Virus record (IMG/VR): IMGVR_UViG_3300031839_001335
Span: 1-33,646 of that record
DNA: 33,646 bases
Direction: 5' to 3' (one strand)
From: a virus
Lineage: Duplodnaviria; Caudoviricetes
This document shows, piece by piece, positions 88 through 33,644 of this stretch. The position numbers were made by a program, and so were the translations under genes. Every line of letters starts with the position of its first letter. The stretch's first letter is position 1. The notes under the pieces are model-generated. The model was given only the letters and a program-made list of their open reading frames with translations. It did no database searches and was not told where the DNA came from.

Positions 88-258
88 ATGAAAAGGTTTA
101 TTTTGACGAGGAAAATAACACATACAGAGAGAGCAGTGGTTGAGTCAGAATCATGGGATGACGCTAATGCTATGCTTAGAAGTGATGAAACTGACTTTGA
201 AATTCAGGCCGATGATGATATTGAAGATGAAACTATTGAATATATTGGCGACTGCTAA
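88..258 (+). CDS. Small acidic hypothetical protein (cassette-type ORF)
   Basis: ATG at 88 after GGAGAG. The stop TAA is the TAA of the core TGCTAAC (253-259). The ORF track extends it to a TTG at 4. Confidence 0.65.
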   Translation: MKRFILTRKITHTERAVVESESWDDANAMLRSDETDFEIQADDDIEDETIEYIGDC

Positions 259-271
259 CAGCGCAATAAGC
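253..271 (-). other. attI-like recombination site A
   Basis: Minus strand reads GCTTATT-GCGCT-GTTAGCA (7-nt box, 5-nt spacer, GTT core). It has no hairpin partner and matches sites at 2544-2562 and 25723-25741. Confidence 0.55.
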
Positions 272-321
272 GGAACACTATCCACGTAATTTAATATTAA
301 ACTTAATAAAAGGAAAAACAC

Positions 322-725: not shown

Positions 726-1052
726 ATGACCAAGCGTATGAAATGGCAAGACATAGCACCCCCTATTCCAAAAGGCGACCCTATGCCAATGACTGAAGAA
801 TATTTCAGAAAGCATCAAGCAATGGCACATGATCTGATTGATAAACAACGTATTGAAATATCTAAGTTAAAGCAACGGGTTAATAACTTAGAATTGAAGA
901 ATAAGTCCATGACAGGTAAAAAACTAATACGCCAAATAATAACAAGACTAAATTATAAGGGCGATGTTTACTTTGTTGGCCACATCGTAAAAGAAATAGA
1001 ATCCCTAACATCAGATGAACTACTCGCATTGATTGGAGGTAAAGCAAAATGA
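726..1052 (+). CDS. Hypothetical phage protein with a coiled-coil segment
   Basis: 108-aa ORF tightly packed between ssb and the next gene (ATGA overlap). Confidence 0.7.
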   Translation: MTKRMKWQDIAPPIPKGDPMPMTEEYFRKHQAMAHDLIDKQRIEISKLKQRVNNLELKNKSMTGKKLIRQIITRLNYKGDVYFVGHIVKEIESLTSDELLALIGGKAK

Positions 1053-1222
1053 ACACAACAGCATCAACATTCTTTAGCCTCATGGCTGAGTTCGGAACAG
1101 CACAAATACCGCTTGAGAGCATGTGCGATAAGTATTTCAACCTAAAGTATGGGGCAGCCAAGAGAAAAGCGGCCAAACAATCATTGCCAGCTAATTTTGG
1201 ATGCCCTTATTGGAGCGCCTAA
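1049..1222 (+). CDS. PrtN-like (pyocin activator family) small DNA-binding protein, apparently C-terminally truncated or chimeric
   Basis: Not in the ORF track. Reads MNTTASTFFSLMAEFGTAQIPLESMCDKYFNLKYGAAKRKAAKQSLPANFGCPYWSA with a GGAGG RBS. LMAEFG..IPL...C.KYF resembles the PrtN N-terminus. The stop lies inside the attC core GCCTAAC. Confidence 0.65.
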   Translation: MNTTASTFFSLMAEFGTAQIPLESMCDKYFNLKYGAAKRKAAKQSLPANFGCPYWSA

Positions 1223-1279
1223 CGCCTTAGTTAAAAGGCGGCTGCTTTTTAGCCGTCATTTTTGAACGACTTGTTAGCT
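1217..1279 (-). other. attC site 1 (63 bp)
   Basis: Minus strand: AGCTAAC-AAGTC-GTTCAAAA...TTTTAAC-TAAGGC-GTTAGGC, with an internal CGGCT/AGCCG stem. Confidence 0.88.
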
Positions 1280-1296
1280 GTTGGAGCTTGATTATT

Positions 1297-1548
1297 ATGA
1301 AAATACCAGAAGAATTAGAAGCAATTATTTACGACACAATGAAGCAGATGAGTGACCACAGTAAGGCTCTCTGCGATTTGGTGAACACGCACGGAACTGA
1401 CGAGCAAAAACAAGCATACAAAGAGGCTGTTTACGCTCCTGTGGTTCGGTTTTCTTTGATTCTCGGCAAAGACGCTATTGCACGCCATAAAATCAGGCAC
1501 GAAGAAATAAGCAAGCAGGTAAAAGCCTGCTTACATAGTGACAGCTAA
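1297..1548 (+). CDS. Gene-cassette ORF, hypothetical protein
   Basis: Bounded by GTTAGCTG (1273) and CAGCTAAC (ending 1549), which are perfect complements. GGAG RBS. The stop lies in the core. Confidence 0.8.
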   Translation: MKIPEELEAIIYDTMKQMSDHSKALCDLVNTHGTDEQKQAYKEAVYAPVVRFSLILGKDAIARHKIRHEEISKQVKACLHSDS

Positions 1549-1607
1549 CGTAATAACTAAGGGGTGCGTAGCGAAGCGGAGCATCCCGCTTGAGTGACTT
1601 GTTATGA
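1543..1607 (-). other. attC site 2 (65 bp)
   Basis: Minus strand: TCATAAC-AAGTC-ACTCAAGC-GGGATGC...GCACC-CCTTAGT-TATTAC-GTTAGCT. Confidence 0.9.
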
Positions 1608-1801
1608 GTAATTTTCAATTTAGCAACGTGGTTGTTGTAGATGATGACCAAATAGGCGTGATCGTCAAATCATGGGCAGACGGAAAGCATGATGTTTATG
1701 TGCGTAGTTACAACGGCGTGAGGGAGTACCCAGAAAGCGAGATTAAGCATTTTATTTACAGTAAAACCCTTGATGAAGATGAATACGCTTTTTACTCATA
1801 A
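1604..1801 (+). CDS. Gene-cassette ORF, small protein with an SH3/KOW-like beta pattern
   Basis: Bounded by GTTATGAG (1601) and CTCATAAC (ending 1802). The ATG and the TAA both lie inside the cores. Confidence 0.8.
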   Translation: MSNFQFSNVVVVDDDQIGVIVKSWADGKHDVYVRSYNGVREYPESEIKHFIYSKTLDEDEYAFYS

Positions 1802-1871
1802 CCCCGCTATTTTGCGGCGCACGTAGTGCGTCCGAGTGACCATCGGGAACGACAACAATGCTTTGTTATGT
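1796..1871 (-). other. attC site 3 (76 bp)
   Basis: Plus strand: TCATAAC-CCCGCT-ATTTTG...CAACAAT-GCTTT-GTTATGT, with an internal CGCAC/GTGCG stem. Confidence 0.8.
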
Positions 1872-1889
1872 GCCGACGAGGAGAGAGAA

Positions 1890-2057
1890 ATGGAAAATAT
1901 TGATGGTGACACAATGCAAGATTTTATTAACTGGCTTTCAGATAGAGAGCAGGACATTGCTGATGGTGTTGAAGATTTTGGGGGACTCCGTGCGATATTC
2001 TTCAGCCTATTTGGGCGTAATGCTGGTGAGAAAGTTGAGCCAGACCCGTTCTGGTAG
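1890..2057 (+). CDS. Gene-cassette ORF, small acidic hypothetical protein
   Basis: GAGGAG RBS before ATG 1890. Cassette bounded by GTTATGTG (1865) and CACATAAC (ending 2066). An in-frame GTG at 1836 lies inside the attC. Confidence 0.75.
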   Translation: MENIDGDTMQDFINWLSDREQDIADGVEDFGGLRAIFFSLFGRNAGEKVEPDPFW

Positions 2058-2059
2058 GC

Positions 2060-2137
2060 ACATAACGCCAATGCTTAGGGGCGCGAGGTACGAGCGTCCC
2101 AGTGAGTAAAGCGAACGACTAGAGCTACTTGTTAGCG
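2060..2137 (-). other. attC site 4 (78 bp)
   Basis: Plus strand: ACATAAC-GCCAAT-GCTTAG...CTAGAGC-TACTT-GTTAGCG, with a GGGGCGC/GCGTCCC stem. Confidence 0.85.
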
Positions 2138-2149
2138 CGAGGAAAAGAG

Positions 2150-2335
2150 ATGGAAATATTATGTTGGATTTTAGCCCTTATTTGGGTTTCCGGCTGGATC
2201 AAAGAATTGGCTTGGGTTCATTCCACCATGGAAAGACACGGTATTGAATACCCGGATGACGCAGTGAAGTACGCGATGCCTGTGGTGCTGTTCCTTGCCT
2301 GGCCGTATTTCTACTTTTATGGAAAGACACGCTAA
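2150..2335 (+). CDS. Gene-cassette ORF, small two-TM membrane protein
   Basis: GAGG RBS and two hydrophobic segments. Bounded by GTTAGCG (2131) and CGCTAAC (ending 2336). Confidence 0.8.
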   Translation: MEILCWILALIWVSGWIKELAWVHSTMERHGIEYPDDAVKYAMPVVLFLAWPYFYFYGKTR

Positions 2336-2393
2336 CGCCATAGCTGTGCGGCGTGGAGCGCAGCGGAACGTCCGAACGAGCGACTTGTTAGGC
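2330..2393 (-). other. attC site 5 (64 bp)
   Basis: Plus strand: CGCTAAC-GCCATA-GCTGT...ACGAGC-GACTT-GTTAGGC. Confidence 0.85.
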
Positions 2394-2440
2394 GTAATTG
2401 GAGACTGAAATGAGCAGGCAGAAGGACTTAGCATGCCACA

Positions 2441-2512
2441 TCCTTTAAGAAAAATATTTTCTTAAAGGATAGCATTATATTTCTTAAAGGACAAAAGCAC
2501 TTTCTTAAAGGA
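2441..2512. repeat. Iteron-like 12-bp repeats TTTCTTAAAGGA (3 direct, 1 inverted) inside an essentially non-coding cassette
   Basis: Direct copies at 2458, 2480 and 2501. Inverted copy TCCTTTAAGAAA at 2441-2452. Confidence 0.85.
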
Positions 2513-2543
2513 TGGAGTTTCTTCAGTTGACCTCGGCTTGAGC

Positions 2544-2562
2544 GCCTAACAGCGTATTAACA
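2544..2562 (-). other. attI-like recombination site C
   Basis: Minus strand TGTTAAT-ACGCT-GTTAGGC. It terminates the array and has no hairpin partner. Confidence 0.5.
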
Positions 2563-2591
2563 GGCAAAAAATAACTATACAGTACGCATAT

Positions 2592-3795: not shown

Positions 3796-4636
3796 ACAGT
3801 CGCAACGTGCCGAAAAGCTGATCTGTCGGGTCGTTGTCTGTTTGGATGCGGATGCGCGTTATTGCCGCAGTAATTGAGCTAACTGTAGATGTAAGGAGTA
3901 CCTGTATATTGTCAGTGTCACGGTAAGTGTTGGAAATACTGGTAGCAATTTTTAGGTTACTCCCGGCATAATCCTCAATCGTTAATTTAAGATATGAATA
4001 CGAGCCGCTTGGCGAACTGGCTGCTGCCGCCGAGCCGATTCTTGCCTCTGCCACCTCGGAGCCTGTTGTTGAGTTATTTGACCCACCGACCCATTGCCTA
4101 TGATAGTTTGAGGCCGTGGTGTCTGCATTCATGTATAACACAACGGCATCAAGTGTGCTGGACACGTCTCCACGTACTGCGCCCTCAATAATAATTCGAT
4201 TAAACCCAGACGGAATGTTGTTAAAATCAAAATCTCCAGCAGTCGTGTTATTGATTTCCTCAATTAGCTGCTTGCCGTAATATGGAGCGCGGTAGCTTTC
4301 CCATTTAGTGATTGTGATCGTGTTGCCTGCCGCCTCGTCTACAATGACATCGCCATCCGTACCGCCAATGGTCATCTTACCTGCTGCAATGGCCGTGATC
4401 TTAGCCGAATAGATGTTGTTGGCTGCGTTGCTAAATCCGGTGACGTTGACATAATCATCCGCATCAAACCCGGCCGTTATAAAACCGTTGCCAGAATCGT
4501 TAAATGAGTTGTCGGCGTTGGCGGCCGAAATAGTGGTGCCTGATATGGTGACCGATGTGGATAGCTGGGACAGAATGACTTGATCTGTGTACGCTGGCGC
4601 ACTGGATGCCGTTAATTTAGAAATTGGTGTGGTCAT
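3782..4636 (-). CDS. Virion tail or fibre-associated protein
   Basis: S/T/G/A-rich beta protein. N-terminal ISKLT and C-terminal AAITRIRI...LRLYG patterns are typical of phage tail proteins. Confidence 0.6.
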   Translation of the reverse strand: MTTPISKLTASSAPAYTDQVILSQLSTSVTISGTTISAANADNSFNDSGNGFITAGFDADDYVNVTGFSNAANNIYSAKITAIAAGKMTIGGTDGDVIVDEAAGNTITITKWESYRAPYYGKQLIEEINNTTAGDFDFNNIPSGFNRIIIEGAVRGDVSSTLDAVVLYMNADTTASNYHRQWVGGSNNSTTGSEVAEARIGSAAAASSPSGSYSYLKLTIEDYAGSNLKIATSISNTYRDTDNIQVLLTSTVSSITAAITRIRIQTDNDPTDQLFGTLRLYGEL

Positions 4637-4759
4637 TTGAAAGCTCCGTGAGACCCCGTCTCTTCAGGGCGGGGAGGTAAGAAGTGCTTTTGATCTTTTC
4701 TGTGCATAAATAATACCTTATATATTGACTTTCACATAATTTAATGCATTATATGAAGC

Positions 4760-4849
4760 ATGGTTAAAAAAGCATACAAATACAGATTCTATCCAGACGA
4801 AGAACAAGCAGAATTGCTTGCCAAGACGTTTGGCTGTGTTCGATATGTT
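4760..4849 (+). pseudogene. tnpB: tnpB 5' fragment (HTH_OrfB_IS605-like)
   Basis: Reads MVKKAYKYRFYPDEEQAELLAKTFGCVRYV, then is interrupted. Confidence 0.88.
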
Positions 4850-5549
4850 AGAAACTGATTCCGGCATCTCTCAAAGCTCCTTCTAAATAATCGATCCTTT
4901 TCTGCATATCCGTGACTGATCTGCGGTTATCTGTTTGTTGTTTTTTGGTTGCCCACCTACAATTATCTGGGTCATAGTTGCCGTTATTATTTATACGATC
5001 TAGTGTGTGGCTTTTTGATGGCCTGCGTCCCATATCCTCTAAGAATTTCGCATAGTTATTTACCCAGCTTTTGCATACGCTAATGCCTCTTTCGCCATAG
5101 TATTTGTAGCTAGGACTTTTATTATTCAAGCATCGGTCTTTCATCGACTGCCAGCTATAGTATTCGGAGCTGTAAGAATCTCCGTGAACAACTTTTTTGC
5201 TAAATTCACACCCGGTATTGCATGAACACTTACAGCCATCTTTTAGGCTAATACCAAGTGCATAAACAATCTCCCCGCAATCACAAATAACTTCATATTT
5301 TCGATTAGACCTATGTCCATTTTTGATTACTCTGTAATTTCCTGTTGCGGTGAGTGATCCAAAACGATCACCTTTAATAACAATGCTTTTCTTTCTTAAT
5401 TCTCCCGTTATGGCCTGTTCAAGCGTGGCCAATTTGTTCATCCTGGAACCAATCGTTGTTAATGGAATAGCATATTTTTTAGATGCTTCTTGTCTTGTTA
5501 AATACTCACCAAATACGTTGTGCTTTTTGGCTCTCATGGCTTTACTCAC
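4848..5549 (-). CDS. Phage HNH-type (His-Me finger) endonuclease
   Basis: CDCG/SCN motifs plus HG...EYYSWQSMKDRC...YGERGISVC...LDRINNNGNYDPDNCRWAT. Confidence 0.88.
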   Translation of the reverse strand: MSKAMRAKKHNVFGEYLTRQEASKKYAIPLTTIGSRMNKLATLEQAITGELRKKSIVIKGDRFGSLTATGNYRVIKNGHRSNRKYEVICDCGEIVYALGISLKDGCKCSCNTGCEFSKKVVHGDSYSSEYYSWQSMKDRCLNNKSPSYKYYGERGISVCKSWVNNYAKFLEDMGRRPSKSHTLDRINNNGNYDPDNCRWATKKQQTDNRRSVTDMQKRIDYLEGALRDAGISF

Positions 5550-5556
5550 TCTATAT

Positions 5557-5928
5557 AACGATAACCAATTATATCACAAAACCCTTCGCATTAAAAACAT
5601 GATTAAAAATCCTAAATTAGCCAAGCATATCGCGGACGCGTCTTGGGGAGAACTGACTAGGCAAATAGAGTATAAGTCCAATTGGGGCGGTCGTACTTTT
5701 GTCGCTATTGACCAATGGTTCCCTTCGAGTAAACGCTGTGATTGCTGCGGATACATTGCGGATACGTTGCCGCTCGATGTACGTTCCTGGACTTGTCCAG
5801 AGTGCTCAACAACACTGGATCGAGACATCAATGCGGCCAACAATATTAAGCGGGCGGGCTGCTCGTTAATAGCCTTTGGAGAGAATGTAAGCGGCATTGG
5901 GTTAGTCCCTGTGTCCAGTTCTCGATGA
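5557..5928 (+). pseudogene. tnpB: tnpB 3' fragment (Zn ribbon plus RuvC-III)
   Basis: NDNQ...IKNMIKNPKLAKHIADASWGEL..QIEYK...PSSKRCDCCG...WTCPEC...DRDINAANNI. Confidence 0.9.
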
Positions 5929-5967
5929 ATTAGGAATCTCCTTCCTTTATGTAGGAGAGCAGTCAAT

Positions 5968-6525
5968 TTATTCCTCTAGTATTATAGCGTTACCGCCCTC
6001 GGTTGTGATTGCTTCGTTGCTCTCGCTGTGTAGAGCCGTGCCTGATGCGGGTGCAGCAGCGCTGATCGTTGCGCTGTGAGTGGTGAGCGACAGAGCCTCA
6101 GCGTTGGCATTGATCGGGGTAGAAAGATTAATAAAAGCCGCATGAGTTGTTATCGTGAAACCAATATTTTTTGTGCCAATATTTCCTCGCAGCGCCCAAA
6201 CGCCAGACGTGCGGGATGCCGTGTACTTTGACACGGAATATTCGTTAGTCAGGTCAAGCATCAAGTCGCCAGACTCAACAGCTATCGACGGCAAATTGCC
6301 GTAGCGATCTATCTGTATCGGATTAGCGTGCTGGGTTACCGTGTTCCCCTCCACCGCCCATGCGCCCTTAGCCGTCGTGCCATCTGTGTCATAGATGTAA
6401 ATCTTATCCAGTGGGTCAATAAACCATCGCGGGTCAATGCTGTTGATGTAAGGCCAATCAAAAGGCACAGCATTTGTGATGGTTGCGGGGTGCGTGGTTA
6501 ATTCAAGTGTTACCAGCGCTGTCAT
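5968..6525 (-). CDS. Hypothetical virion/tail protein
   Basis: Co-oriented ORF in the late operon, coupled to the upstream gene. Confidence 0.65.
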   Translation of the reverse strand: MTALVTLELTTHPATITNAVPFDWPYINSIDPRWFIDPLDKIYIYDTDGTTAKGAWAVEGNTVTQHANPIQIDRYGNLPSIAVESGDLMLDLTNEYSVSKYTASRTSGVWALRGNIGTKNIGFTITTHAAFINLSTPINANAEALSLTTHSATISAAAPASGTALHSESNEAITTEGGNAIILEE

Positions 6526-7073: not shown

Positions 7074-7520
7074 TTAAACCTTACTCAATGTCGCAATGCC
7101 TGAAGCATTCCAAGTGATCTGTAAAGTGATTGCGGTCATATCAATCGGGCCACCTAGATCAACGTAAGCCACAGCCGGGTCACCTGCTTGCGTGTCGTTA
7201 TAGATCAGCCCCCAGTAGGCGTCGGTGTCGTTTGAACCATCAGCCGCCCATGATGGGTTAGTGCCTGAGTCAAACGTCCCTGTGCCGGATGTTTGCGACC
7301 AGCAATTTGCCCAAGTGCCAATAGATGTGCCGCCTGCTGTATAAGTGCCAGCCGTGCCAACTTCGGTGTAGTCACCCAAAGCTGGCGTGGCGTCGCTTGC
7401 TGTGGGCGCTGTGGTGTTGTCGAGAACTGCCACTTTAATGTCATCGGTGCCCGCCCATCCTGCAAAGTAATCGCCGAGGGACATTGCCTCGTCAAACCAT
7501 ACGATGTCGCCTTGTGCCAT
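7074..7520 (-). CDS. Conserved phage structural/tail-associated protein
   Basis: DDIKVAVL...EV...GTYTAGG...WNASGI pattern. AGGAG RBS. Confidence 0.7.
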   Translation of the reverse strand: MAQGDIVWFDEAMSLGDYFAGWAGTDDIKVAVLDNTTAPTASDATPALGDYTEVGTAGTYTAGGTSIGTWANCWSQTSGTGTFDSGTNPSWAADGSNDTDAYWGLIYNDTQAGDPAVAYVDLGGPIDMTAITLQITWNASGIATLSKV

Positions 7521-25650: not shown

Positions 25651-25722
25651 TTCTTCTTATCAGTCGGTCTTTGCCTACTTCCTTTTGACATTTTCTTATC
25701 CTTTTTTTTAGTTGTTAGTTCC

Positions 25723-25741
25723 GCTTAACGCACTGTTATAT
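25723..25741 (+). other. attI-like recombination site B
   Basis: GCTTAAC-GCACT-GTTATAT, preceded by GTTCC as in site A. Confidence 0.55.
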
Positions 25742-26797
25742 AATTTTCACAAGCCATTGGGAATAAATCTCGGTTGCTATTTGTGCAGTCATTACAGGGG
25801 GTACACTCATTCCAATTAAATAAACAGGTTTATTAGTGCAAAAATTATAATCCATTGGGTAACTTCCTGCCTTTTTACATTCATCATCAAATAAAGTTCT
25901 TTCAATTTCATAGTCATAAGGCAAGCCACTTGCTCTAATTGTTGGCACTACTTTGTCAGGGTGTAATTTAATTTCATTAAAGTAGCTTCCTTTAGGGTGC
26001 ACACTGCTAAAGCTATTTCCAGCCTCACAAAGCAACCAATATTCTCTAATCATTGGAGAAAGTCCAATTGCATTTTCATTGCCTTCTGTTTGTCTTATGT
26101 ATTTGTATGGTATTTCAGGTTCTTTAAAATCGATTGTAATTTCAGGAGCAACGGTAAATAAATCCATCTGTTTTAAAAACGGTCTCGCTAAATCTTTTCT
26201 AAATGCAATAAAAAAAACACGCTCTCTTTTTTGTGGCACTCCCATTTTTGAGCCATCAACTAAAAAATGTTGTACGTAATATCCTGCTAAATCAAATTCC
26301 TTGTAAATTTTTCTTACATACTCTTTTGCATCTCCCTGCAATAACCCTTTTACATTTTCAGCAACAACAACTTTAGGCTGCAATTCTTTTGCAAGGTCTA
26401 TAAAGTCAAAGAATAAATTATCTAAAACCTGTACAGCTTGTCCTTCTCTAAATTTCTTTTCTTTTCCCCAGTCCTTTTCTCTATTTCCAGCCGTTGAAAA
26501 ACTGCTACAAGGGGGCGAACCGTCTAAAATATCAAGGTTGTAAAGTTCTTCTGGTAAATCCTTTCTTAATTTAAAAGTTTGGATAGGCTCTAAATAAGCA
26601 TATTTAGGGTTGTGGTTAGCTTTGTATGCTTCCATCATTTTAGGATCAATCTCATTACACCCTAATACATCAAAGCCAGCTAATTTATACCCCATTGTCG
26701 AACCACCACCGCAAGCAAAACAACTAAAAACCGTTCCTTTATCTTTTGTGAAGTTTGCATCTTTTAAAGTCCATTCATATTGGTATCTATGTTCCAT
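25736..26797 (-). CDS. C5 DNA cytosine methyltransferase (gene cassette)
   Basis: Motifs I (FACGGG), IV (GSPPC), VI (ENVKG), VIII (PQKRERVF) and X (GMSVPP). No cognate endonuclease nearby. Confidence 0.95.
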   Translation of the reverse strand: MEHRYQYEWTLKDANFTKDKGTVFSCFACGGGSTMGYKLAGFDVLGCNEIDPKMMEAYKANHNPKYAYLEPIQTFKLRKDLPEELYNLDILDGSPPCSSFSTAGNREKDWGKEKKFREGQAVQVLDNLFFDFIDLAKELQPKVVVAENVKGLLQGDAKEYVRKIYKEFDLAGYYVQHFLVDGSKMGVPQKRERVFFIAFRKDLARPFLKQMDLFTVAPEITIDFKEPEIPYKYIRQTEGNENAIGLSPMIREYWLLCEAGNSFSSVHPKGSYFNEIKLHPDKVVPTIRASGLPYDYEIERTLFDDECKKAGSYPMDYNFCTNKPVYLIGMSVPPVMTAQIATEIYSQWLVKII

Positions 26798-26823
26798 AAA
26801 ATATTAATCTCCAATAAAAAATT

Positions 26824-26957
26824 ATATAACAAAAGCATCAAGCGGACTAAAACCGCTATCGGCTTTTTTAGTTTGTTGCATGTCTAAAGTTAATTGGTCT
26901 TTCAAAGTATCTCCTGTTATTTGTGGCGGTTTTAACCGCTTATGCTAAACGTTATTC
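26824..26957 (+). other. attC site 6 (134 bp, long type)
   Basis: ATATAAC-AAAAG-CATCAAGC-GGACTAAAACCGC...GCGGTTTTAACC-GCTTATG-CTAAAC-GTTATTC. Confidence 0.9.
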
Positions 26958-26967
26958 ACATTAACCA

Positions 26968-27339
26968 CTACCACCACCTATCATCTGATTTAAGCATTTC
27001 CGTTTCTCGACTGTGCCAAGCACAACCAACACCCGAACACTCAGATAAATGCCTCTCAAACACCTGATAAGTCTCGATTGTTTCCTTTGTCGATAACTGA
27101 CTAGATGTTCTGCCGTCGTTCATTGCTTTAGATACAACATTGAATAACTCATGTAGATTGTGTTTTGTCCATTTAGCTTTAAAGCCTTTCTTCATGGCCT
27201 GCTCAATAAATACGGTATATTCATAACCTGAAGCATCCAGCTTTTCAGCATACTCGGTTAGCGTTCCGAACAGTGATGTTCGCTGCTTTTCTGTTCTGGG
27301 TTTTTCGTCTGTATCACCCATCAAGCAAACCCTCTTCAC
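26968..27339 (-). CDS. NinB-like protein
   Basis: KPRT.KQ..SL at the N-terminus and TSSQLST.E at the C-terminus, in the nin region. Confidence 0.55.
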   Translation of the reverse strand: MKRVCLMGDTDEKPRTEKQRTSLFGTLTEYAEKLDASGYEYTVFIEQAMKKGFKAKWTKHNLHELFNVVSKAMNDGRTSSQLSTKETIETYQVFERHLSECSGVGCAWHSRETEMLKSDDRWW

Positions 27340-30079: not shown

Positions 30080-30663
30080 CAGAACTTCTCCTGAGCAGTC
30101 TGGAAATCAACAATCTCTCCTGTTTCTCTATTAACCTCTACAGTAGAAACTTTCCCTTCTTGGTAAGGTAAGGGTTTTACTTCTCCTTCTCCTTCTCCTT
30201 CTCCTTGCTTCGATGCCCCCTTAGAAGCCCCCTTAGAAGCCCCCTTCTTTGGAGGCTTATAATTGAGCTGATATTTGACTCTAAATTCGCTCTTAAATTC
30301 TTCTAAAACTCGTGAATTTGGCAGCCCCTTTATGATGCTTTGAATACCCATTACTCGCTTATCAGCTTTGTTCAAAGAAGCGCCAATATCGTCAAGCATA
30401 ACTTGCCTCAACCAGACAGTATTTGTCTCTTGATCGAAGGCACAATCACCATCAGAAATAAGGTTATTTAGAGCCGCCATGTAGTCCTCTATCGGCATTC
30501 CAATATCGGCTGCTGCATAGGCTGGATGAAGTGAATACAGGTAAATTAAATTGCTGTGAGGGCTTGTTCTAAGATAAGCAGAAACTATTGTTGTGTTTAA
30601 TCCGTGACGCTTGTTCTTTGCCTCAACCCAAAAAGATGGCGGGAATTGTGCGTATTTTCTCAT
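30079..30663 (-). CDS. Putative replication initiator (O-like position)
   Basis: FW...YL.TSPHSN...LY pattern, internal repeats, and position upstream of the helicase and primase. Confidence 0.65.
   Translation of the reverse strand: MRKYAQFPPSFWVEAKNKRHGLNTTIVSAYLRTSPHSNLIYLYSLHPAYAAADIGMPIEDYMAALNNLISDGDCAFDQETNTVWLRQVMLDDIGASLNKADKRVMGIQSIIKGLPNSRVLEEFKSEFRVKYQLNYKPPKKGASKGASKGASKQGEGEGEGEVKPLPYQEGKVSTVEVNRETGEIVDFQTAQEKF
30181..30246. repeat. Intragenic repeats, candidate replication origin
   Basis: (TTCTCC)x4, then GCCCCCTTAGAA x2 plus a partial third copy (encoding KGAS repeats). Confidence 0.65.
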
Positions 30664-30975: not shown

Positions 30976-31200
30976 TTATTTGGAGTCCCGTAAGAACTGC
31001 CAATCAACATCGGGTCGCAATACCTCACACCTGATGGCGCCTTGTGTTTCTTTTTCAAGTTTAACACAGATACGAGCGCCAATACGTTGCCCTATTGAGC
31101 AGGCTTTTCTAATATATCCAATCGTAGTGCCACACTTGAGGCACAAATCAGATTGATCTTTAGTTGGTAGGCTATTTAAGTAATCTAATAATTCTTTCAT
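30976..31200 (-). CDS. cro: Cro/YdaS-like repressor (probably leaderless)
   Basis: L..YL......Q......CGTT.GY...E..T.GA...E.LRPDVDW motif. ATG 31200 lies 7 nt after the -10 box. Confidence 0.82.
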   Translation of the reverse strand: MKELLDYLNSLPTKDQSDLCLKCGTTIGYIRKACSIGQRIGARICVKLEKETQGAIRCEVLRPDVDWQFLRDSK

Positions 31201-31207
31201 ATTCGGG

Positions 31208-31236
31208 ATAATACCCACAGGTATTCATTATGTCAA
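31208..31236 (-). promoter_or_regulatory. PR-like sigma70 promoter with operator
   Basis: TTGACA-17 nt-TATTAT. Palindrome AATACC-CACA-GGTATT at 31210-31225. Confidence 0.85.
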
Positions 31237-31271
31237 CACCTAATGTCTTCCCTTAATTATCTTCAAATAAT

Positions 31272-31314
31272 TATACCTTTGGGTATTGACTTGCTTTATA
31301 CCAGTAGGTATTAT
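31272..31314 (+). promoter_or_regulatory. PL-like sigma70 promoter with two operators
   Basis: TTGACT (31286)-17 nt-TATTAT. TATACC-N4-GGTATT at 31272-31287 and 31297-31312. Confidence 0.85.
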
Positions 31315-31349
31315 AACTCCCGAAATAACAAAAAAGAACGGGGTTAAGC

Positions 31350-31493
31350 ATGATAGATCAAATTAAGAACTGCGAGAGACGCGATAAGCGCAAAGACTTT
31401 TACGATAAATTAATTTTGAACGTAGCGGGTATTGGTGGAGCAATCGCTTTTATTGTTATCTTGGCGGTTAGCCAAACATTGGTGACGCTATGA
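31350..31493 (+). CDS. Small protein with a C-terminal TM helix (47 aa)
   Basis: Not in the ORF track. GGGG RBS, first ORF after PL, ATGA-coupled to the next gene. Confidence 0.6.
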   Translation: MIDQIKNCERRDKRKDFYDKLILNVAGIGGAIAFIVILAVSQTLVTL

Positions 31494-32977: not shown

Positions 32978-33220
32978 TTGAGCTACGCAAGCTGGCTGAC
33001 CCTGCCGCGAATAATGATGCACGAAATGCCGGACGAATGGCAGGACAAAATGGCTGCTTTGCTTGAGGAGTGGGACGAAACCTGGAACAGCGACGACATG
33101 CCAAGCCCAAGCGTAACAGCTAAACAAAACGGCAAATTTACACTGTGGCCGAGCTGGTTGTTGAACTACCGCCACCCAGACAGGCAGGAAATTGAGAAGC
33201 GCAGAATTGGCGGCGCATAA
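32978..33220 (+). CDS. Cassette-type ORF, probably 5'-truncated
   Basis: TTG start without an RBS. The frame extends upstream only to a TGA. The stop lies in the core GCATAAC. Confidence 0.6.
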   Translation: MSYASWLTLPRIMMHEMPDEWQDKMAALLEEWDETWNSDDMPSPSVTAKQNGKFTLWPSWLLNYRHPDRQEIEKRRIGGA

Positions 33221-33344
33221 CGCCAAGCGTAACCCGACGCCGGGCAGAAACACGGGAGACTTGAAGCAATGAAAGAGCAAAAAGACCACACAAAACCAGA
33301 AGCCGCAGAGGATCAGGCGGTCGGCGTTGACGCGCTTGTTAGTT
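33215..33344 (-). other. attC site 7 (130 bp, long type)
   Basis: Minus strand: AACTAAC-AAGCG-CGTCAACG-CCGACCGCC...GGCGTCG-GGTTACG-CTTGGC-GTTATGC. Confidence 0.85.
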
Positions 33345-33589
33345 TGCGGATCACGGACGATACCAAACTGGGGCGCAAAGCCATCATGTTTGGCGATGGC
33401 GAAGACGGCTATTTCATGCAACAACACCAGATTTTTGCGGACGACCACGACACTGGAGTAACCATGCTTGTCACCGGCAATCTTGGCAAGGACAACACCA
33501 CTCGGACTTTTGAATTCGGGGGGCAGGATTTCGAGAAAATCCAGGATGCCTTTCGAGCTGCTGGGCACGATGTTGTTTCGTCAAACTAA
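33269..33589 (+). CDS. Gene-cassette ORF whose first ~25 codons lie inside attC7
   Basis: GGGAG RBS and ATG within the attC loop. Cores GTTAGTTTG (33338) and CAAACTAAC (ending 33590) are complementary. Confidence 0.78.
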   Translation: MKEQKDHTKPEAAEDQAVGVDALVSLRITDDTKLGRKAIMFGDGEDGYFMQQHQIFADDHDTGVTMLVTGNLGKDNTTRTFEFGGQDFEKIQDAFRAAGHDVVSSN

Positions 33590-33644
33590 CGCCCACATAT
33601 AAGCGGTGGCGATTTTAGCCATCCGATTGATTTGCTTGTTAGCT
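33584..33644 (-). other. attC site 8 (61 bp)
   Basis: Plus strand: AACTAAC...CGGTGGC-GATTTTA-GCCATCCG-ATTGATT-TGCTT-GTTAGCT. Confidence 0.78.

Follow-up and report, generated by a model that had tools for sequence, protein, structure and literature searches.

Inverted attC arrays followed by attI-like half-sites in a phage contig and in other viral genomes

Phages are already known to carry clusters of attC sites. Qi et al. (2023; PMC9892861) reported 17 CALINs in 10,705 phage genomes, that is, integrase-less attC clusters with methyltransferase cargo whose sites recombined with IntI1 via the bottom strand, and the arrays described here are of the same kind. The text of that paper terms the phage PH101 typical and does not report the polarity of its genes relative to attC, which we found to be inverted (attC top strand on +, genes on -); the orientation of PH101 may be visible in its figures or annotation file. 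Neither does the text describe a terminal attI-like site, which our arrays possess. Bacterial arrays and CALINs (Cury et al. 2016, PMC4889954; Nivina et al. 2016, PMC5027507) share with ours the R and L boxes, the extrahelical base, the central spacer and the terminal loop, and the arrays also share chimeric sites, short genes and a stop codon that often lies in the box. In contrast to these bacterial arrays, the genes in our window (the whole stretch of DNA analysed, 33,646 bp, which is the entire viral record) lie on the attC bottom strand, attC comes before its gene, an attI-like site lies downstream, intI and Pc are missing, and the cargo is phage-like.

Other described systems resemble the window in part. 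In the 'inverted integrase' integrons of Treponema it is intI that is inverted and not the genes, whereas the window inverts the genes; the accessible text of PMC13323075 and of bioRxiv 10.1101/2022.02.06.479319 concerns integrase orientation only. Insertion at attG sites (Loot et al., bioRxiv 10.1101/2022.09.11.507474) is similar in that IntI acts in trans and cassettes settle outside the integron, where a resident promoter reads them. However, it keeps the classical order of gene and then attC and uses very many unrelated sites, whereas in the window the terminal site is a 20-nt motif that is conserved and recurs at loci unrelated to one another. The delta-attI-type cassettes of integrons belonging to classes 1 and 2 (PMC12901181) likewise have attI fragments of 14-18 nt past the gene, and these recombine with IntI1; there, the fragment replaces attC in the classical orientation, whereas the half-site of the window faces the opposite way and ends an array of full attC sites. 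Literature searches, covering few subscription journals, returned no report of gene-inverted phage attC arrays or of a downstream attI-like site. Phage attC clusters are therefore known (PMC9892861), and what appears to be new relative to these sources is the inverted polarity as a viral rule together with the downstream attI-like site.

The record is classed as linear and 81% complete, and seawater sequencing runs contain near-identical DNA. PHROGs matches identified a P22-like head, portal and ejection module, a DnaD-helicase-primase block, NinG, RecT, ssb, a cro-like gene and an excisionase-like gene. No integrase family was found among the 49 ORFs scanned, a TIGR02249 search of this incomplete contig gave no match, and neither did an Rfam scan of the window or a blastn search of positions 1200-2600 against GenBank phages. 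A RecT homologue search for the host returned only Gammaproteobacteria labels, on two matches. The excisionase-like (PrtN/AlpA-type) gene (1049..1222, +) precedes array B and takes its stop codon from the first attC box (TAA), and it is followed by no integrase gene within the contig. Two sigma-70-like promoter candidates were predicted, one PL-like (31286..31314, +) facing arrays A and B and one PR-like (31208..31236, -) facing array C, and such promoter-like sites were no more frequent in the scan than expected by chance. The region 31200-31490 combines these divergent sites with three ATACC-N4-GGTAT palindromes and the cro-like gene, and no cI-sized repressor ORF was found between the two sites. 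The phage is possibly a lytic derivative, or its repressor and integrase genes sit in the missing part. Elsewhere in the genome, an HNH endonuclease gene (4848-5549) on the opposite strand splits the remnant of an IS605/TnpB-type transposase (4636-5970; 5' end at about 4760-4860, 3' end at about 5575-5928).

Eight attC-like hairpins occur at three places in the window. Array B (1217-2393) has five of them and array A (33215-33644) two, both with genes on +, and array C (26824-26957) has one, with a methylase gene on -. Array B starts with attC B1 (1217..1279) and gene B-c1 (1297..1548, 83 aa, whose protein is also found in relatives L395 and L489, next to different neighbours). It continues with attC B2 (1543..1607), gene B-c2 (1604..1801, 65 aa, its ATG within a GTTATG box), attC B3 (1796..1871, right arm branched), B-c3 (1890..2057, 55 aa), attC B4 (2060..2137, right arm branched), B-c4 (2150..2335, 61 aa, hydrophobic) and attC B5 (2330..2393); B-c1, B-c3 and B-c4 have no assigned function. 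All these genes are on +, and the classical top strand of every site is on -. A decayed cassette, B-c5 (2394..2543, +), for which relatives (loose ends from runs X5 and X7) have further sequence after 2431, separates B5 from the terminal half-site T2 (2544..2565, -). In array C, the gene C-c1 encodes a C5 cytosine DNA methylase (PF00145; 25736..26797, -) and has end boxes complementary over 13 nt; it lies between the terminal half-site T3 (25718..25741, +) and the 134-nt attC C1 (26824..26957), whose classical top strand is on +. Array A holds the 130-nt attC A1 (33215..33344, -), gene A-c1 (33269..33589, +, 106 aa, no assigned function), which starts inside A1, and attC A2 (33584..33644, -), 2 nt short of the contig end. 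At the other end of the contig, gene A-c2 (88..258, +, 56 aa from the ATG at 88), whose upstream attC probably lies beyond the contig end, is followed by the terminal half-site T1 (253..276, -). A join between the two ends of the contig was considered and dropped: the record is linear and 81% complete, and the box of A2 fits that of B2 (9 nt) better than that of T1 (6 nt). The leader before A-c2 (positions 1-91) is unlike its counterpart in run X10, in which the gene has the matching box directly before it, and in run X1 a second contig shares positions 62-91 and then runs into another ORF.

On the coding strand, each site reads RYYYAAC, 6 nt, L arm, loop, L arm with one extra base, 5 nt and GTTRRRY, with the conserved AAC/GTT R''/R' boxes present at all eight. 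When the extra base is placed on the right arm, L-box pairing is 6/6 in six of the eight sites and 5/6 in one; the classical placement reduces it to 3-4 of 6. Because the extra base and the 5-nt spacer lie on its right arm at all eight sites, the coding strand corresponds to the classical bottom strand. The same layout is seen in the aadA7 bottom strand as given in the PMC9892861 supplement, and the gene 3'-attC order of a classical integron cassette was found at none of the eight sites. In array C the polarity flips along with the direction of the gene, such that C1 reads as a classical top strand on +. The original prediction, made from the DNA alone, was that all eight sites are reversed relative to their genes and read canonically on the non-coding strand, the minus-strand methylase locus included, and that the eighth site is the least regular; all three points were borne out. 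This last site, A2, pairs at two of six L-box positions at fixed spacing. In attC sites the extrahelical base lies beside L'' and is G on the bottom strand. In the window it occupied this position at every site, although the base itself varies: on the coding strand it is G at seven sites, B1 among them, and C at B3. The C form also occurs at two related loci (L370 and L409).

We searched the window with a covariance model built from 33 bacterial attC sites (61 positions, E up to 10). This model clearly matched B1 (38.9 bits), A2 (31.8 bits, with a one-base insertion), B2 (31.6 bits) and B5 (26.9 bits) and weakly matched B4 (10.6 bits), all on the template strand, as anticipated; no coding-strand match was obtained at any of the eight sites. 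The longer or branched sites B3, A1 and C1 were missed by the model. As a control, both attC matches in the class 1 integron of pR148 were best on the coding strand. With a score of at least 12, our own scanner detected five sites in the window against a total of seven over 20 dinucleotide-shuffled sequences (mean 0.35 and at most 2 per shuffle), and it overlooked three of the eight sites. Its matches at 7157, 14100, 23481 and 24705 were attributed to chance, being of low score and inside genes. The bottom strand of attC is reported to fold more stably and to contain more G:T pairs and more purines than the top strand (PMC5027507). Folding both strands, the second check that had been proposed, agreed in part with this expectation: in constrained folds, the coding strand was stabler at seven of the eight sites (at one by 0.1 kcal/mol) and had more G:T pairs at six, but it was purine-rich at only five.

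The boundaries of the units can be read from their end boxes. In seven of eight cassettes, the GTT box preceding the gene pairs best with the AAC box of the next site, over runs of 7-13 nt, compared with 4-5 nt for the GTT and AAC boxes within a site; only A2, which lies at the contig end, departs from this. Six of eight cassette ORFs and two of three upstream phage genes terminate at the TAA in the box. The sense ORF scored better than the antisense ORF in all seven intact cassettes, and the strand of the methylase gene and of B-c2 is set by homology. Relatives vary at the same boundaries. Contigs from runs X5, X7 and X10 diverge from the window at or beside the crossovers 256, 1550, 2328-2332, 25741, 26950 and 33586, and the methylase gene and C1 are found as a single piece in relatives (25735-26979, 25709-26954). 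L395 is 97.9% identical to positions 1213-1550, a segment comprising the upstream attC B1, in which L395 has two compensatory pair changes, and its gene, and then continues with an unrelated downstream attC. Relative to L397, L407 contains an extra 296-bp unit made of an attC and the downstream 66-aa ORF, with the joint at AAC. Because the end boxes match in seven of eight cases and relatives diverge at the crossovers, the units of the window are real cassettes, with the complementary ends and varied contexts of integron gene cassettes. Moreover, L395 shares only the upstream attC of its gene and the L407/L397 indel is exactly an attC plus a gene, in line with the expectation that each cassette carries its attC 5' of the ORF. 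In L489, B-c1 sits behind a B5-type attC instead of B1, which indicates that attC and gene can be re-paired, and B1-type and A2-type attC sites precede other genes in relatives.

We did not find an exact empty site in contigs from five runs; the candidate joints 1234-2546, 1250-282 and 25738-26939 were discounted for their short sides or unknown fill. Among 77 loci of NinG relatives used for empty-site comparison, only L409 presented an array. It had also been proposed that new cassettes enter at the promoter-distal end. An attI-like site does lie at that end. The sole clean indel (L407 versus L397) is internal to its array, however, and the distal cassette of array B (B-c5) is decayed, common to relatives and adjacent to the diverged T2, such that distal entry stays a conjecture.

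Each array closes downstream of its last gene with AAC, 5 nt and a 7-nt L box that form no hairpin (T1-T3; the boxes of T3 are inverted, and T2 is the most diverged of the three). The motif of T1 and T3 was found at 27 distinct places on viral and metagenome contigs, some of them near-identical. Six of the viral matches lie on a single 53-kb contig, IMGVR_UViG_3300027852_000046 (L372-L374, L376, L379 and L380), in both orientations, and most of them close an inverted array. The stop codon of the upstream gene lies inside the box at 23 of the 27 places, a matching upstream box of at least 7 nt was present at 19, and none of the 27 presented an attC fold or an adjoining IntI gene. In 30 related loci (the 27 motif loci plus L409, L489 and L274), all 42 covariance-model matches were on the template strand. 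The same R-L layout was observed in 10 distinct sites beside bacterial intI, and T1-T3 and the 27 motif places have the layout of attI: R and L boxes separated by 4-5 nt, absence of an attC hairpin and a position at the end of the array in attC polarity. Similar half-sites end many other viral arrays. In Rhodanobacter caeni, the terminal site of a prophage reads AAC ACACG ATAGACC CCAAAAAGCG and the site beside the host intI reads AAC GCTAA GTAGACC CCAAAAGCG. This match between prophage site and host attI, a single case judged by sequence, argues that the terminal half-sites are copies of host attI that face against the phage operon. Short tyrosine recombinase genes follow two of the 27 terminal sites and lie near a third (L392, L395 and L383); in two of these contigs the gene (PF00589, 214 aa in L395) starts 28 nt past the terminal site. 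By eye, the arrays of phage P12002L also end in a repeated half-site. There, after gp35 and gp53 (L213), the assayed P12002L_attC2 (PMC9892861) is repeated downstream of two gene rows, and it resembles a terminal half-site more than it does an attC.

With regard to known classes, arrays B and A have five and two attC sites, respectively, and no nearby intI, as in CALINs, and array C is a single site. They do not form a complete integron: intI was not found beside any array in this contig, and the attI-like site lies downstream of the last gene, as opposed to upstream with Pc.

We then compared viral and bacterial contigs using one attC pattern blind to both genes and polarity, over 11/64 and 2/64 parts of the data, respectively. 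Gene strand between neighbouring sites was called from our own codon, start and ribosome-site score, which was checked on the window and on the phage TJE1; for most cassettes of the survey the call is this codon score. A total of 84 of the 94 viral cassettes were inverted, none was classical and 10 were uncalled, compared with 12 inverted, 129 classical and 59 uncalled among 200 bacterial cassettes. At the level of clusters, 38 of 118 viral clusters were inverted-only, no other class was observed and 80 had no call, whereas the 130 bacterial clusters comprised 35 classical-only, 7 mixed, 2 inverted-only and 86 without a call (Fisher p ~7e-15 with mixed clusters taken as inverted, for clusters that may still be related). 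Thirty-six further single viral sites, judged by their flanks, were inverted in 19 cases, classical in 2 and unclear in 15. The 12 bacterial inverted calls include one IS30-type transposase, six weak ORFs of 30-42 aa and two cassettes within a prophage. We found no copy of a window-type inverted cassette in a host array across 149 bacterial loci. Cassette ends match alike in the two sets, with mean runs of 8.5 nt (viral) and 8.8 nt (bacterial). Over a scan of 11/64 parts, about 740 stored viral stretches fit one narrow attC pattern, not all of them being true sites. By these counts, viral contigs have the mirror-image layout as a rule and bacteria only rarely. A distinct phage-adapted cassette class, as originally suggested, is supported by the 38 of 38 called viral clusters that are inverted-only against 2 of 44 bacterial ones, but TJE1 is of classical polarity and the class is therefore not uniform among phages.

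Several features of the reading frames were observed along the way. In A1, L029, L041, L048, L059 and L066, the terminal loop of a long attC contains both the ribosome-binding site and the ATG used by the gene that follows, and 7 of the 84 viral inverted ORFs start inside an attC. All 20 viral read-through ORFs enter the next site in the frame in which AAC encodes Asn; the same frame is used by 10 of 11 bacterial read-through ORFs and is therefore not phage-specific. The complementary boxes of B-c2 (1601-1612 and 1792-1802) overlap its native start and last codons, and this start is shared with an attC-free homologue (L214). It is possible that this overlap, a single case, is a trace of cassette making.

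Close relatives of the methylase were found at 80 viral loci, and six homologues of B-c2 (59-80%) in other viral contigs. A strict scan called no attC beside the gene at any of the 80 methylase loci or the six B-c2 loci; by eye, complementary end boxes are present at least at methylase loci L129, L148 and L202. AT-rich viral methylase genes (L129, L148, L200 and L202) also have upstream GTTA boxes and hairpins of another style that the scanner ignores. Family matches in PHROGs were obtained for 17 of the 76 viral inverted ORFs scanned, namely those of at least 150 nt among the 84. The proteins of viral inverted cassettes had no match in the 149 bacterial loci, a small sample. For A-c1, tblastn against GenBank phages was without match and an Atlas look-up returned nothing exceeding lead level. 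Given the attC-free viral relatives and the lack of proteins shared with the bacterial loci, the cargo looks phage-derived and similar to ordinary phage genes.

Taken together, it is likely that these three short mirror-image arrays, each with an attI-like half-site behind it, are moved by a host integron integrase that acts in trans and uses the coding strand in its folded form. The observed basis for this explanation consists of the anatomy and polarity of the sites, the boundaries, the varied neighbours, the contrast between viral and bacterial sets and the prophage half-site. Against it stand the lack of IntI beside the T1/T3 motif (0/27), the two classical sites among the 36 single viral sites and the classical TJE1. 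In established integron chemistry, cleavage by IntI takes place in R', at the AAC of the folded bottom strand (PMC5027507). In the window, IntI would thus cut the coding strand, at the AAC that each hairpin has on its gene-upstream side. Excision would free a unit of attC plus gene, which could be inserted at the attI-like site or at another attC. A unit inserted at a T half-site would become the last of the array, in sense with phage transcription, and the same unit inserted at a host attI would present its gene against Pc. Since the attI-like site is oriented against the phage operon, inverted cassettes would be the only ones that the phage early promoters, the PL/PR of the original prediction, could read. 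The silence of these genes in host integrons, also predicted, would follow from the mechanism. Such cassettes would likely be made from phage genes and circulate among phages. The bottom strands of PH101 recombined better than its top strands with IntI1 (PMC9892861), and since the PH101 sites are inverted, we infer that its recombinogenic strand is the coding strand. This amounts to the strand-specific assay proposed for the window, performed on another phage. More speculatively, an origin near the repeats at 30215-30246 with two forks would place the bottom strand of all three arrays on the lagging template, a position that raises excision (PMC5371416).

Three other explanations have to be weighed. 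It is unlikely, in our view, that phages have no separate pool of cassettes and merely filter an inverted minority held by hosts, through a landing site that faces against the promoters. Hosts do present such a minority (12 of 141 called bacterial cassettes), the attC sequences of viral loci resemble bacterial ones and cassette ends match equally well in both sets. However, this minority largely dissolves into the transposase, the weak short ORFs and the prophage cassettes described above, the viral inverted-cassette proteins are without match in the small sample of bacterial loci, and homologues of the cargo are plain phage genes. We likewise give little credence to an IntI origin followed by shuffling mainly through RecT-like annealing at short homologies, in which case the polarity would be a frozen accident. 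The phage does encode RecT, attC sites of the B1, B5 and A2 types recur with other genes, and the switch in L489 falls within an 11-nt stretch common to both attC types. Yet identity stops within a few bases of the AAC crossover and the following sites share almost nothing; the end boxes of one cassette remain complementary and compensatory changes preserve the hairpin. Moreover, an accident would not yield one polarity in 38 of 38 clusters from unrelated contigs.

The enzyme itself may conceivably be a phage recombinase rather than that of the host, given that the contig is only 81% complete. A stronger version of this idea appears very improbable: another tyrosine recombinase, perhaps phage-encoded, would read the template strand, and the cassettes would be functionally classical, with gene and then attC. 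The short tyrosine recombinases near three of the 27 terminal sites, the missing fifth or so of the genome and the L489 exchange near the GTT side are compatible with it. On the other hand, the ORF and TIGR02249 searches revealed no integrase, arrays open with a complete attC and close with a half-site, shared units contain the upstream attC, and IntI1 favoured the coding strand of the inverted PH101 sites (PMC9892861). Movement by a host integrase in trans remains our preferred explanation.

We tentatively suggest that phages may run a parallel, mirror-image cassette system on the host integrase, with copies of attI and inverted cassettes of their own that are traded from phage to phage and insulated from the host integron. 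If true, short copies of host attI sit at the ends of phage early operons, and phage accessory genes are packaged in inverted cassettes that would face Pc in a host integron. The presumed purpose of strand choice by IntI is to make cassette genes face Pc. A large viral population of cassettes of opposite polarity, together with attI look-alikes in phages, would mean that the integron machinery is exploited as a shuffler of phage accessory genes, and would account for some of the mosaicism of phages. Having two natural classes of cassettes would also bear on cassette genesis, a process called unknown in PMC4889954 and PMC5371416. Because attC-free homologues exist in phages and the two classes differ only in the direction of the inner hairpin, their comparison would offer a handle on how gene cassettes are made.
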